Part shown: piece after piece, positions 9,698 through 22,448 of the stretch | Position numbering within the stretch: position 1 is the first letter of the stretch | Layout of the letters: the number at the start of each line of letters is the position of its first letter | NCBI RefSeq assembly: GCF_030013595.1 | Contig: NZ_CP122768.1 | DNA from: Escherichia coli | GTDB lineage: Bacteria > Pseudomonadota > Gammaproteobacteria > Enterobacterales > Enterobacteriaceae | Strand: one strand, 5' to 3' | Length of the DNA: 64,000 nucleotides | The notes under the pieces: generated by a model | Seen by the model: the letters and a program-made list of their open reading frames with translations, nothing else | Told to the model about the DNA's origin: nothing | Databases searched by the model: none | Translations under genes and position numbers: made by a program

Positions 9698-12034
9698 ATG
9701 AAGCAAATTCGTCTGCTGGCGCAGTATTATGTTGACCTGATGATGAAGTTAGGTCTGGTGCGCTTCTCAATGTTGCTGGCGCTGGCCCTCGTCGTTCTTG
9801 CCATTGTGGTACAAATGGCGGTAACCATGGTGCTGCATGGTCAGGTCGAAAGCATTGATGTTATTCGTTCTATCTTCTTTGGTTTGCTGATTACGCCGTG
9901 GGCGGTCTACTTTCTATCGGTGGTCGTCGAGCAACTGGAGGAGTCACGGCAACGTCTGTCACGGCTGGTGCAAAAACTGGAGGAGATGCGCGAGCGCGAT
10001 TTGAGCCTCAACGTTCAGTTAAAAGATAATATTGCCCAGCTAAATCAGGAAATCGCCGTTCGTGAAAAAGCGGAAGCAGAACTGCAGGAAACCTTCGGCC
10101 AACTGAAAATTGAAATCAAAGAGCGCGAAGAGACACAAATTCAGCTCGAGCAGCAATCCTCATTCTTACGTTCCTTCCTTGATGCTTCACCCGACCTGGT
10201 TTTTTATCGTAACGAAGATAAAGAGTTTTCCGGCTGTAACCGCGCGATGGAGCTGCTGACCGGAAAAAGCGAAAAACAACTGGTTCACCTGAAACCTGCT
10301 GATGTTTACTCACCGGAAGCCGCTGCGAAAGTCATTGAAACCGATGAAAAAGTGTTCCGTCATAATGTGTCACTGACCTATGAGCAGTGGCTGGATTATC
10401 CCGACGGACGCAAAGCCTGCTTTGAAATCCGTAAAGTGCCGTACTACGACCGCGTGGGTAAACGTCACGGTTTGATGGGCTTTGGTCGCGACATTACCGA
10501 GCGTAAGCGGTATCAGGATGCACTTGAACGCGCCAGCCGCGACAAAACGACGTTTATTTCCACCATCAGTCACGAATTGCGTACACCGCTGAACGGTATC
10601 GTCGGCCTGAGCCGCATTCTGCTGGATACCGAACTCACCGCCGAGCAGGAAAAATATCTCAAAACCATCCATGTTTCGGCCGTCACGCTGGGGAATATCT
10701 TCAACGATATTATCGACATGGATAAGATGGAACGGCGTAAGGTCCAGCTTGATAATCAGCCGGTTGATTTCACCAGCTTCCTTGCCGATCTGGAAAATCT
10801 CTCCGCCTTGCAGGCGCAACAAAAAGGATTGCGCTTTAACCTGGAGCCTACGCTGCCATTACCGCATCAGGTCATTACCGACGGGACGCGTTTACGGCAG
10901 ATCCTGTGGAATCTCATCAGTAACGCCGTCAAATTCACCCAGCAAGGCCAGGTTACCGTGCGCGTGCGCTACGATGAAGGCGATATGCTGCATTTTGAAG
11001 TGGAAGACTCTGGTATCGGCATTCCGCAAGATGAGCTGGATAAAATCTTCGCCATGTATTACCAGGTGAAAGACAGTCATGGCGGTAAACCTGCCACTGG
11101 CACCGGTATTGGTCTGGCCGTTTCTCGTCGTCTGGCGAAAAATATGGGCGGCGATATTACGGTTACCAGCGAACAGGGCAAAGGTTCAACCTTTACGTTG
11201 ACGATCCACGCACCGTCGGTAGCAGAAGAGGTCGATGATGCGTTTGATGAAGACGATATGCCTTTACCGGCGCTGAATGTGCTGCTGGTGGAAGACATTG
11301 AACTGAACGTGATTGTTGCGCGTTCTGTGCTGGAAAAATTAGGTAACAGCGTTGATGTCGCCATGACCGGCAAGGCGGCGCTGGAGATGTTTAAACCGGG
11401 CGAATACGACCTGGTATTGCTGGATATTCAGTTGCCAGATATGACCGGGCTGGATATCTCTCGTGAACTGACGAAGCGTTATCCGCGCGAGGATTTACCG
11501 CCGCTGGTGGCCTTAACCGCTAACGTGCTGAAAGACAAACAAGAGTACCTCAATGCTGGAATGGATGATGTGCTGAGTAAGCCGCTTTCTGTTCCGGCGC
11601 TAACCGCGATGATCAAGAAATTCTGGGATACCCAGGATGATGAGGAAAGTACGGTGACGACAGAAGAGAACAGTAAATCAGAAGCATTGCTCGATATTCC
11701 CATGCTGGAACAGTATCTCGAACTTGTAGGACCGAAGCTGATCACCGACGGGTTAGCGGTGTTTGAGAAGATGATGCCGGGCTATGTCAGCGTGCTGGAG
11801 TCGAATCTGACGGCGCAGGATAAAAAAGGCATTGTTGAGGAAGGACATAAAATTAAAGGTGCGGCGGGGTCAGTGGGGTTACGCCATCTGCAACAGCTGG
11901 GTCAGCAAATTCAGTCTCCTGACCTTCCCGCCTGGGAAGATAACGTCGGTGAATGGATTGAAGAGATGAAAGAAGAGTGGCGTCACGACGTAGAAGTACT
12001 GAAAGCGTGGGTGGCAAAAGCCACTAAAAAATGA
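9698..12034 (+). CDS. arcB: Aerobic respiration control hybrid sensor histidine kinase ArcB
   Basis: 778-aa ORF with transmembrane N-terminus, PAS domain, H-box (SHELRTPLNG), receiver and HPt domains. Confidence 0.95.
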   Translation: MKQIRLLAQYYVDLMMKLGLVRFSMLLALALVVLAIVVQMAVTMVLHGQVESIDVIRSIFFGLLITPWAVYFLSVVVEQLEESRQRLSRLVQKLEEMRERDLSLNVQLKDNIAQLNQEIAVREKAEAELQETFGQLKIEIKEREETQIQLEQQSSFLRSFLDASPDLVFYRNEDKEFSGCNRAMELLTGKSEKQLVHLKPADVYSPEAAAKVIETDEKVFRHNVSLTYEQWLDYPDGRKACFEIRKVPYYDRVGKRHGLMGFGRDITERKRYQDALERASRDKTTFISTISHELRTPLNGIVGLSRILLDTELTAEQEKYLKTIHVSAVTLGNIFNDIIDMDKMERRKVQLDNQPVDFTSFLADLENLSALQAQQKGLRFNLEPTLPLPHQVITDGTRLRQILWNLISNAVKFTQQGQVTVRVRYDEGDMLHFEVEDSGIGIPQDELDKIFAMYYQVKDSHGGKPATGTGIGLAVSRRLAKNMGGDITVTSEQGKGSTFTLTIHAPSVAEEVDDAFDEDDMPLPALNVLLVEDIELNVIVARSVLEKLGNSVDVAMTGKAALEMFKPGEYDLVLLDIQLPDMTGLDISRELTKRYPREDLPPLVALTANVLKDKQEYLNAGMDDVLSKPLSVPALTAMIKKFWDTQDDEESTVTTEENSKSEALLDIPMLEQYLELVGPKLITDGLAVFEKMMPGYVSVLESNLTAQDKKGIVEEGHKIKGAAGSVGLRHLQQLGQQIQSPDLPAWEDNVGEWIEEMKEEWRHDVEVLKAWVAKATKK

Positions 12035-12146
12035 CCCCGGCTAGACCGGGGTGCGCGAATACTGCGCCAACACCAGGGAAATCTTGGCTGCGCCGTAAAT
12101 TATTATGATGAGTTACAAGGGCACAGCACTGTTTTTCAGGCCGCAC
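12026..12146 (-). ncRNA. arcZ: ArcZ small RNA (RyhA/SraH), convergent with arcB and overlapping its stop codon
   Basis: Minus-strand sequence from 12146 reads GTGCGGCCTGAAAAACAG…GGTGTTGGCGCAGTATTCGCGCACCCCGGTCTAGCCGGGGTCATTTTTT, matching the ArcZ sequence as I recall it, including the seed region and intrinsic terminator. Confidence 0.85.
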
Positions 12147-12917: not shown

Positions 12918-13642
12918 GTAAAAGCCGCTTAACGGTGTTTAGTTTCATTCGCCGTTTTCTTCTGCGGTTAATGGTTGTCCTCGCCGTTTTCTGGGGCGGG
13001 GGCATTGCGTTGTTTAGCGTTGCGCCTGTTCCTTTCTCTGCGGTAATGGTCGAGCGGCAAGTCAGCGCTTGGCTGCATGGCAATTTTCGTTACGTGGCAC
13101 ATTCTGACTGGGTCAACATGGATCAAATCTCGCCGTGGATGGGACTGGCGGTGATTGCCGCAGAAGATCAGAAGTTTCCTGAGCACTGGGGCTTTGATGT
13201 CGCTTCCATTGAGCAAGCCCTGGCGCACAACGAACGCAATGAAAACCGTATTCGCGGTGCGTCGACGATTTCTCAGCAGACAGCCAAAAATCTCTTTTTA
13301 TGGGATGGGCGCAGCTGGGTTCGAAAAGGGCTGGAAGCCGGATTAACGCTGGGGATAGAAACTGTCTGGAGCAAAAAGCGTATCCTGACGGTTTACCTGA
13401 ATATCGCCGAATTTGGCGACGGTGTGTTTGGCGTCGAAGCTGCGGCACAACGTTATTTCCACAAACCCGCGAGCAAACTTACCCGCTCGGAAGCTGCATT
13501 ACTGGCTGCTGTATTACCTAATCCACTTCGTTTCAAAGTCTCCGCGCCATCGGGCTACGTGCGTAGCCGTCAGGCGTGGATTTTACGGCAGATGTATCAG
13601 TTAGGCGGTGAGTCGTTTATGCAACAACACCAGCTGGATTAA
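12914..13642 (+). CDS. mtgA: Monofunctional biosynthetic peptidoglycan transglycosylase
   Basis: 242-aa ORF, GT51 transglycosylase motifs ([14 protein letters not shown]); start overlaps elbB stop (ATGA). Confidence 0.95.
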
Positions 13643-14271
13643 GCTTCGCGCGAAGTGAGGGTCAGCGTTTTGCTTTCACGAGGTTGCAGATCTTTCTGCA
13701 GGGCAATAGTCAGCGCCGGTTGGGCGATAAATCGTTTCCATAACCGCTCTTGCTTACGCAGACAACACCACTTCGACCAGGTCGCCAGTGGAATCAATGT
13801 GCTTTCACCAATGTTGTCGCAGACGACGGGGATAACCTCTGACTCACTGATGCGGTGACAGAGGATATTCTGCGGCTTCAGCGACATCGTCACGATACGG
13901 TTATCCTGCAAATAACGCTTCAGCTGTTTCAGTAGCTGGCGCAGTTGTGCAATGTCTTCTTCGTAACGGCATTGTTCAGCAAATTCGGTCAGCGTAATGG
14001 AGGGTTTGCCGTCAAAATCTGCAATCACATCGTAGACATAACCGGTTCCGCAATCCGTCTCAACGGTACCGTGATAGCGCGGTATTCCACTCCAGTCTTT
14101 TAACCGGCGACCAAGATGCGCGTAGTACTTTAACTCACGGCGGATCTCTTTATCGCCACCATCGCCACGATGGTAGACAATCTTGATACAGCGTTGGGCA
14201 TCTTCCGGATGCGCATAACATTTCCGATGTCTTCCGGTGCCCAGGGGACTTTGTTCAGATAAGCGAATCAT
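13639..14271 (-). CDS. yrbL: PhoP-regulon protein YrbL
   Basis: Track ORF 229 aa; canonical 210-aa protein begins [19 protein letters not shown] (ATG at 14271); convergent 4-nt overlap with mtgA. Confidence 0.85.
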
Positions 14272-14321
14272 GCCATCTCCTGGAAATATTTTCTGACGAT
14301 CTCCAGTATGGTCGATTAACT

Positions 14322-14338
14322 TAAACAAAACCTAAACA
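14322..14338 (-). promoter_or_regulatory. PhoP box (TGTTTA-N5-TGTTTA direct repeat) upstream of yrbL
   Basis: Minus strand reads TGTTTAGGTTTTGTTTA, 51-67 bp upstream of the yrbL ATG; yrbL is a known PhoP-activated gene. Confidence 0.65.
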
Positions 14339-14484
14339 ATGCCTCTTAAGGTTTTCTTAAGGTTCTTCTGAAAGTGAAAAGCGCACAAAATGTACAAATG
14401 ACGTTGATTGAGAACGATTTCAGTACGTGATTTTCTTATTGTCGGGGGGAGTTTGAAGGGAGTTGTATGTCAAAGTGATGAAGA

Positions 14485-14757
14485 TTAATCTTCATCAAAA
14501 CCAGAATTAAAGAGGGCGATAACGGCGGCCAGTGCTTCCTCTTCCTGTGGACCGGTCGCTTCAACTTCAATCTGCCGTCCTTTGGCAGAATCCAACATCA
14601 GCAGCGCAATAACGCTGTTGGCTTCAGCCTCGGTGCCTTCGTCATTACGTAACAGCACTTCAGCGTCAAAACCCTGCATTAATTCAAACAGCTTCATTGC
14701 AGGCCGGGCATGCATGCCCAGCTTGTTTGTGATTTCAACAGTTTGCTTGACGGTCAT
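14485..14757 (-). CDS. ptsO: Nitrogen-related phosphocarrier protein NPr
   Basis: 90-aa ORF, HPr-like fold with active-site His (…MHARPA…). Confidence 0.95.
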
Positions 14758-21470: not shown

Positions 21471-22448
21471 TTATTCAACGAGTATTGGCGATAACCAGTA
21501 CAACATCGCCAGCCATACGATAAATCCGCCAGTTAATAATACCCCTACACCACGGCCCGGTTGCGGGGAGCGCCGCCAGCATAGCAACGCAAAAATAATG
21601 CTCACCAGCAACATCACGCTGTAGTCACGACTGTACGCCAGTGGATCAATCTCTCCTGGCGTTATCAGCGCGGGTAAACCCAACACGATGACAATATTAA
21701 AAATGTTTGCGCCAATGATATTTCCGACAGCAATGTCGTTTTCACCTTTGCGAACCCCCGCTATTGCGGTTGCCAGTTCCGGCAGGCTGGTTCCGATAGC
21801 AATTGCCGTCAGACCCATCGTCAACTCGCTGATGGCAAAGTAATTCGCCAGCACCGTGGCGTTATCAACCACCATCCGCGTGGCCACTGGCATGATGATA
21901 AGCGCAATGCCGAGCCATAAAAACGCGACGGGCAATCCACCGTCACGCGGCAACTCTGCAAGCTGCTCTCTGGTCAGGCTGTCAGTCCCCTGACGTTCAG
22001 CCTGACGTGCAAGTTTAACAATGAACAGCAGCCATAGCACAGCCAGAAAGAGGAGAAAGATACCATCGCTGCGACTAAGTTGTCCGTCATAGAGTACGGA
22101 ACCGGCCACCACGCTGACCAACAACATTAAGGGTAATTCACGGCGTAGAACATCAGAATGGACGGTAAAAGGACGAACCAGCGCAGCCAGACCGAGGATC
22201 AGCAATATATTGATAATGTTTGAGCCGAGGGCTGTACCAACGGCTAAATCGCGTTGTTCGTGCAAAGACGCGGCAAGCGAGACGATGATTTCTGGTAACG
22301 ATGTACCAATACTGACCACCGTCATGCCGATGATCAGCGGCGGGATGCCAAAGGTTCGGCAAAGAATAGACGCGGCAAAAACCAGGCGGTCGGCACTGTA
22401 AACGACCAAAAGTAAACCAACAATTAACAGTGCCGTAGCTAAAAGCAT
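21471..22448 (-). CDS. yrbG: CaCA-family cation exchanger YrbG
   Basis: 325-aa polytopic membrane ORF with two GTSLPE alpha-repeat motifs. Confidence 0.9.
   Translation of the reverse strand: MLLATALLIVGLLLVVYSADRLVFAASILCRTFGIPPLIIGMTVVSIGTSLPEIIVSLAASLHEQRDLAVGTALGSNIINILLILGLAALVRPFTVHSDVLRRELPLMLLVSVVAGSVLYDGQLSRSDGIFLLFLAVLWLLFIVKLARQAERQGTDSLTREQLAELPRDGGLPVAFLWLGIALIIMPVATRMVVDNATVLANYFAISELTMGLTAIAIGTSLPELATAIAGVRKGENDIAVGNIIGANIFNIVIVLGLPALITPGEIDPLAYSRDYSVMLLVSIIFALLCWRRSPQPGRGVGVLLTGGFIVWLAMLYWLSPILVE

Follow-up and report, generated by a model that had tools for sequence, protein, structure and literature searches.

PhoP and PmrA/BasR boxes in the control region upstream of yrbL in Escherichia coli

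Which regulators act at the yrbL promoter of Escherichia coli, and what is the short direct repeat that lies beside a PhoP box upstream of this gene? The DNA considered here is a stretch of 64,000 nucleotides (64 kb), called the window below. The original prediction for it held that yrbL is preceded by a perfect PhoP box and that the adjoining repeat might be the site of a second regulator. As a PhoP-regulon gene yrbL is a textbook case, and control by both PhoP and PmrA has been in the literature since 2005. Both short repeats upstream of the gene are the published PhoP and PmrA/BasR sites, and the finding is correct but ordinary. yrbL also figures in work on transcription: a 'yrbL consensus elemental pause sequence' is used as a model RNA polymerase pause site (PMC11260103), and a 2025 study of nascent RNA gives profiles 'near the yrbL TSS' (PMC12709180).

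The yrbL locus and its PhoP box

In the open reading frame list, the genes around the site encode ArcB, ElbB, MtgA, YrbL, NPr (PtsO), RapZ, PtsN, Hpf and RpoN. A 1.2-kb query was 100% identical to E. coli chromosomes and was matched in 5,425 of 5,426 complete genomes. The 213-bp spacer between npr and yrbL is identical to that of K-12 MG1655, whose annotation has no feature inside it. The two flanking genes are as follows.

13639 to 14271, minus strand: yrbL coding sequence, 210 aa, beginning MIRLSEQ, with its ATG at 14271 (open reading frame list; RefSeq annotation of the identical record and of K-12).
14485 to 14757, minus strand: npr (ptsO) coding sequence, with its stop codon at 14485-14487 (open reading frame list and RefSeq annotation).

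A 100%-identical E. coli record annotates their products as 'PhoP regulatory network protein YrbL' and 'PTS phosphocarrier protein NPr', and with the open reading frame list it bears out the earlier placement of the site between yrbL and ptsO. YrbL is a kinase-like protein of the PF10707 YrbL-PhoP_reg family (Pfam, E = 2e-67). Its upstream neighbour on the same strand, npr, is the last gene of the rpoN operon. A perfect 22-nt palindrome, TGATGAAGATTAATCTTCATCA, spans the npr stop codon (14476-14497) and is not followed by a T-run, and a scan of 14150-14600 gave no canonical terminator in the npr-yrbL spacer of E. coli, so that transcription of the rpoN operon could conceivably continue into yrbL. 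Farther off, the ArcZ small RNA is annotated in K-12 between elbB and arcB; by offset from the K-12 coordinates, it is expected in the window at about 12026-12146 on the minus strand.

Nearest to yrbL are the following elements.

14322 to 14338, minus strand: PhoP box, TGTTTA-GGTTT-TGTTTA (TGTTTAGGTTTTGTTTA), in direct orientation; 11 nt separate it from the -10 hexamer downstream.
14305 to 14310, minus strand: -10 hexamer CATACT, invariant in 12 of 12 aligned loci and assigned as the same hexamer in Salmonella (PMC3335776).
14272 to 14302, minus strand: putative yrbL 5' leader, with its start placed at about 14302-14303 by homology to Salmonella.

The PhoP consensus is quoted as (T/G)GTTTA-N5-(T/G)GTTTA (PMC3335776, PMC5775216), and the yrbL box fits it at 12 of the 12 specified bases, at exactly the minus-strand coordinates first proposed for it. 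No other zero-mismatch match occurs in the window, for which shuffles expect 0.07; 6 of 100 shuffled windows contained any such match. A one-mismatch match, TGTTAATTGTTGGTTTA, lies at 22413-22429 on the minus strand, and about 0.7 of that kind are expected by chance in the window.

Between the end of the box at 14322 and the start of CATACT at 14310 lie 11 nt (AGTTAATCGAC). This is the class II ('architecture I') arrangement, in which a single direct box, 11-12 nt upstream of the -10, replaces the -35. The Salmonella yrbL PhoP site has been footprinted and is of the single-box 'architecture I' type, with an exceptional distance to the -10 of 11 nt in place of 12; its overlap with the -35 led to the prediction of a class II promoter (PMC3335776). 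A consensus scan of 14150-14600 found no sigma-70 -35/-10 pair on either strand of the E. coli locus, as expected where an activator site replaces the -35. S1 mapping of Salmonella yrbL gave a single, PhoP-dependent start, 2 nt after CATACT, and a 32-nt leader (PMC3335776). By this homology the E. coli start would lie at about 14302-14303, where A14302 is invariant in 12 loci. In Shigella flexneri, an identical box (tTGTTTAggtttTGTTTAa) was shifted by PhoP-P in EMSA, and yrbL expression fell to 0.02x in a phoPQ deletion (PMC5775216). An exact box in the activating position, together with binding and a roughly 50-fold PhoPQ dependence in Shigella, upholds the claim that yrbL is activated by PhoP.

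The direct repeat beside the PhoP box

The repeat lies immediately upstream of the PhoP box with respect to yrbL.

14344 to 14364, plus strand: PmrA/BasR box, TCTTAAGGTT-T-TCTTAAGGTT, with CTTAAG at 14345-14350 and at 14356-14361, 5 bp apart.

The repeat had been described as a 9-nt word present twice, 11 bp apart, in an interval ending at 14363. The repeat is real and the spacing of 11 stands, but the unit found by the repeat finder is the 10-mer TCTTAAGGTT, at 14344-14353 and 14355-14364 (start to start, 11). Because this unit reaches 14364, the earlier interval ends one base short. The 9-mer, CTTAAGGTT, occupies 14345-14353 and 14356-14364.

In the definition of the PmrA box, a 5-bp gap separates a CTTAAG from an xTTAAT hexamer, and a PmrA dimer binds the pair head to tail (PMC3973317). 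The yrbL repeat, CTTAAG-GTTTT-CTTAAG at 14345-14361, is such a pair of hexamers with a 5-bp gap and an 11-bp period. The pattern YTTAAK-N5-YTTAAK has one site in the window, which is counted on both strands because CTTAAG is palindromic; shuffles expect 0.06 matches, and two matches were reached in 0 of 100 shuffles. For comparison we used the boxes of K-12 eptA, arnB and pmrR, three promoters in the lipid A modification regulon of BasSR, whose genes appear together as BasSR-regulated (PMC13405929). They read TCTTAAGGTTAAGTTAAT (arnB), TCTTAAGGTTCACTTAAT (pmrR) and ACTTAAGGTTGGCTTAAT (eptA). The yrbL unit is the first-half 10-mer of the arnB and pmrR boxes, present twice, and it matches the eptA first half at 9 of 10 bases, the first flanking base being the one that differs. 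All three promoters share with yrbL the sequence (T/A)CTTAAGGTT, followed 11 bp later by a second hexamer containing TTAA. The suspected second regulator site can thus be named a PmrA/BasR box, by consensus, by the K-12 boxes and by the literature.

In K-12 both hexamers are palindromic, and the orientation of the box was read from the flanks. Against the arnB, pmrR and eptA boxes the yrbL site matches at 16 of 21 positions on the plus strand and at 11-12 of 21 on the minus strand, which argues that the box is oriented away from yrbL, although two distant genera, described below, have the spacer in the reverse sense. It would thus point along the plus strand, back to back with the PhoP box. 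The PmrA box lies 6 bp upstream of the PhoP box, the start-to-start distance being 23 bp; the distance published for Salmonella yrbL is about 24 bp (PMC2681069). The two boxes also resemble each other. The segments 14318-14336 (the PhoP box and its flank) and 14346-14364 (in the PmrA box) form a 19-nt inverted pair with 79% complementarity, the boxes share the spacer GGTTT(T), and the region of the PhoP box fits the PmrA pattern with one mismatch (TTTAGGTTTTGTTTAAG).

In the activating arrangement, seen at arnB, eptA and pmrR, the box has the direct orientation and 10-13 nt separate its end from the -10 downstream. The yrbL box differs from these in being inverted, in lying upstream of another activator's site, with no plus-strand -10 after it, and in having two strong CTTAAG halves. 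This geometry fits the published repressor role of PmrA at yrbL and is no argument against PmrA binding.

The likeness of the boxes raises the question of whether the repeat could be a second, upstream PhoP site, as at the two-box 'architecture II' promoters. PhoP and PmrA half-sites are alike, the two boxes form the inverted pair described above, and, read on its opposite strand, the repeat of some species fits the PhoP pattern with two mismatches (GGTTTTCTTAAGGTTTT). In the window, however, no PhoP match with two or fewer mismatches overlaps the repeat, whereas the PmrA pattern fits with none; the 10-mer is the BasR half-site of arnB and pmrR; and the footprinted Salmonella yrbL promoter was classed as having a single PhoP box (PMC3335776). 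We consider a second PhoP site extremely unlikely. We consider equally unlikely the assignment of the repeat to some other regulator, or a functionless chance duplication. TAAGAAAACCTTA is loosely like an RcsAB box, of the RcsB type TAAGAA...TCCTA. ugd combines PhoP, PmrA and RcsB inputs (PMC3335776). The spacing and the second half of an RcsAB box misfit, however, whereas the PmrA consensus fits exactly, and the literature assigns the site to PmrA. A chance origin is excluded by the repeat's uniqueness in the window and by its near-invariance in seven genera, in a spacer that otherwise evolves fast.

The orientation of the box invites a further reading, that PmrA/BasR activates a plus-strand transcript antisense to npr, instead of or besides repressing yrbL. 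The flanks, and the CTTAAT distal hexamer of other genera, put the box on the plus strand, the orientation used at the activated arnB, eptA and pmrR promoters. Activated promoters have a -10-like hexamer 10-13 nt after the box, however, and the corresponding stretch here, 14365-14377 on the plus strand, has no plausible -10 and is unconserved (mean identity 0.55, 0 of 13 positions invariant), which makes a BasR-driven anti-npr transcript unlikely. Further, no promoter-like site was detected on either strand of 14150-14600, and the K-12 annotation has no such transcript. On balance we regard the antisense reading as very improbable.

Conservation of the promoter elements and a model for their joint use

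To these arguments can be added the conservation of the elements. The alignment comprised 12 loci, namely the window and 11 usable loci from a YrbL scan of species-representative genomes: Escherichia (six lineages), Citrobacter (four) and Salmonella arizonae. Mean identity and invariant positions over the 12 loci were as follows.

14305-14310, -10 hexamer CATACT: mean identity 1.00, 6 of 6 invariant.
14322-14338, PhoP box: mean identity 0.89, 9 of 17 invariant.
14339-14343, gap between the boxes: mean identity 0.55, 0 of 5 invariant.
14344-14364, PmrA repeat: mean identity 0.94, 16 of 21 invariant.
14365-14377, stretch beyond the repeat: mean identity 0.55, 0 of 13 invariant.
14378-14399, a third block, Block A: mean identity 0.95, 19 of 22 invariant.
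14400-14484, distal spacer: mean identity 0.51, 1 of 85 invariant.

Across Escherichia, Citrobacter and Salmonella the -10, the PhoP box and the PmrA box are thus conserved islands against a background of 0.51-0.55. The distal PmrA hexamer reads CTTAAT on the plus strand of the window in E. albertii, Citrobacter and Salmonella, giving the canonical CTTAAG-N5-CTTAAT, and CCTAAT, with one mismatch, in C. amalonaticus; the CTTAAT form lends independent support to the plus-strand orientation. Nine further loci were added through exact-protein look-ups. The PmrA box lies equally far from the ATG in Escherichia, Citrobacter, Salmonella (S. enterica included), Siccibacter and Superficieibacter. In Pluralibacter it adjoins a PhoP-like box with the spacing kept, and in more distant genera the PhoP box degenerates. 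Erwinia sp. CPCC 100877 (about 1400-1417) and Cedecea colo (about 1376-1392) have a PmrA-type 17-mer with an inverted spacer (CTTAAGGTTTT..., in the yrbL sense). Block A is absent from both loci, and neither a PhoP box nor CATACT was found at the Cedecea locus; yrbL regulation may be wired differently in these two species.

The spacer also varies within E. coli, where 1,424 genomes are 90-95% identical to it. In the four intact divergent alleles that were aligned, the PhoP and PmrA boxes persist. A common variant changes the proximal PhoP hexamer from TGTTTA to CGTTTA (14327), and one strain has CTTAAT in place of CTTAAG (14361). In E. coli Ecol_AZ161 (NZ_CP019012.1) similarity to the other alleles ends within the yrbL -10, after CATAC, beside an annotated IS66-family tnpA; the strain looks like a natural yrbL promoter knockout in which yrbL has apparently been displaced. 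A 420-bp contig labelled 'Tannerella forsythia ATCC 43037' (NZ_JUET01000135.1) codes for part of E. coli YrbL (residues 1-129, 99% identity) and is almost certainly E. coli contamination of a Bacteroidota assembly.

We conclude that the yrbL promoter of E. coli is, with high probability, under dual-input control from this region, activated through PhoP and repressed through PmrA/BasR. The primary source for the PmrA footprint at yrbL is reportedly Zwir et al. 2005 (PNAS 102:2862). Three papers give the E. coli promoter PhoP and PmrA sites and describe it as PmrA-repressed (PMC3335776, PMC2681069, PMC4196223), and a regulator table lists yrbL under 'BasR, PhoP' (PMC4145685); all four cite Zwir et al. 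for PmrA binding or repression, and the footprint and the direction of regulation therefore rest on these later papers of the same group. In iron-adapted E. coli B, yrbL was repeatedly among the most down-regulated genes while basR, eptA and arn were strongly up (PMC13405929), an anticorrelation with the BasR regulon that is consistent with PmrA repression. We consider it established, here by sequence (the boxes themselves, the way they are placed, their likeness to known sites of the same genome and their conservation) and elsewhere by experiment, that PhoP-P activates from a box in the place of the -35 and that the effect of PmrA/BasR through the CTTAAG repeat is negative.

In the model that we propose, phosphorylated PhoP, produced in low Mg2+ or in response to some antimicrobial peptides, would bind TGTTTA-N5-TGTTTA in the place of the -35, 11 nt from CATACT, and would act as a class II activator. 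Phosphorylated BasR/PmrA would bind the two strong half-sites TCTTAAGGTT and lower yrbL expression, its signals being Fe3+, Al3+ and mild acid through BasS, and PhoP-induced PmrD where that link operates. The net logic would be a gene that is on in low Mg2+ and damped during the PmrA/BasR response, as at pmrD. In the simplest model of repression, BasR-P would hinder PhoP-P binding, or the contacts of the RNA polymerase alpha-CTD or other upstream polymerase contacts. We infer such steric interference from the gap of only 6 bp between the two 17-bp boxes.

Two known promoters offer close comparisons. Salmonella enterica yrbL is orthologous and has the same order of elements as E. coli yrbL, and PmrA repression is predicted for it (PMC3335776, PMC2681069). 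The two share a single direct PhoP box 11 nt from CATACT, a PmrA box about 23-24 bp upstream and a short leader. They differ in that the Salmonella PhoP box begins CGTTTA, its second hexamer reading ATTTA in one strain compared, and in that the Salmonella PmrA box (on the plus strand of the window) is TTTAAG-N5-CTTAAT rather than the CTTAAG-N5-CTTAAG of K-12. The second comparison is Salmonella pmrD, whose promoter was reportedly found to be PhoP-activated and PmrA-repressed by Kato et al. in 2003. Like yrbL, pmrD has a class II PhoP box and, upstream of it, a PmrA box through which PmrA represses. Later papers likewise describe pmrD as PhoP-activated and PmrA-repressed, as yrbL is, in a 'bi-fan' motif (PMC3335776, PMC2681069, PMC4196223). 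The box-to-box distance is about 38 bp at pmrD (PMC2681069) and about 23 bp at yrbL. Through pmrD the circuit feeds back on PmrA itself; YrbL is not known to take part in it.

Beyond confirmation, the yrbL site matters little; yrbL and pmrD are examples of the 'bi-fan' motif. Three points can be added. The K-12 yrbL box is two copies of the strong BasR half-site, it stands back to back with the PhoP box, 6 bp away, and this back-to-back arrangement is conserved across at least six genera. The doubled half-site, the placement and the conservation all fit an anti-activation mechanism.

Block A and the distant yrbL homologues

The third conserved block of the spacer has the following position.

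14378 to 14399, minus strand: Block A, ATTTGTACATTTTGTGCGCTTT (TTGTACATTTnGTGCnCTTT), a conserved element 13 bp upstream of the PmrA repeat.

Read from 14399 to 14378 on the minus strand, Block A is ATTTGTACATTTnGTGC(G/T)CTTT. It is as conserved as both boxes and is the most conserved stretch of the spacer. In motif form it is TGTAC-N5-GTGCNCTT, and its core, TGTAC-N5-GTGC-N-CTT, is kept in Pluralibacter, with another 5-nt spacer, and in Superficieibacter. Among the DNA compared, which included the K-12 arn and eptA regions, the core occurs at yrbL loci only; a shorter core is matched at two further places in the window, possibly by chance. A looser Block A is found upstream of a non-syntenic yrbL copy of Enterobacter hormaechei, a copy bordered by fragments of transposase genes and with no npr beside it, which argues that Block A belongs to yrbL and not to npr.

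Several explanations of Block A were tried. As an RNA hairpin or terminator (GUAC...GUGC and a U-run) it folds at -3.5 kcal/mol (z = +0.14), a stability that 107 of 200 shuffles also reach; the stem is broken without compensation in Siccibacter, and the hairpin was rejected. Its variable positions are not 3-periodic, and a coding sequence was likewise rejected. A promoter within the block is unsupported: the candidate -10 TACATT has no conserved -35 region before it, and no conserved -10 occurs 16-18 nt after TTGTAC. In an informal comparison with the motifs of sigma-54 and CRP, the marbox, the Ada and RstA boxes and the MlrA and OmpR half-sites, none appeared to fit the full length of Block A or its spacing. 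An Rfam scan of 14100-14700 returned only a eukaryotic snoRNA, at 20.3 bits against a 45-bit cutoff, which was taken as noise. Between npr and Block A, C. amalonaticus and Pluralibacter have what reads by eye as a canonical terminator hairpin with a T-run.

No mention of Block A was found in the part of the yrbL literature that was searched. Most simply, Block A would be the site of a further regulator. Binding there of a third regulator, so far not described at yrbL, or a role of the block as the core of an additional promoter farther upstream, is in our view a real possibility that falls somewhat short of probable. In that case yrbL would be a three-input promoter, and Block A is the one item at this locus that could justify bench work.

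The Enterobacter hormaechei copy (1200-1500) belongs to a second type of yrbL, with 60% identity, in an island-like setting with IS256-like transposase fragments and, upstream, a tRNA-like 3' end (GGTTCGAACC...CCA). It keeps a PhoP-like box (TGTTTAATGTCCATTTA), a -10 reading CATAAT and the Block A-like sequence, and its PmrA box is degenerate. More distant YrbL homologues, with about 50% identity, lie directly after dnaE on two metagenome contigs, L026 (1501-3621) and L027 (1501-3597), beside genes for Wzy_C (O-antigen ligase-like), Glyco_transf_25 and GT2 proteins, and L027 has a second PF10707 gene nearby. E. coli YrbL itself has a weak Pkinase match in Pfam. Together, the LPS/LOS-type gene context, this weak match and the PhoP/PmrA control hint at a kinase-like role for YrbL acting on envelope sugars.
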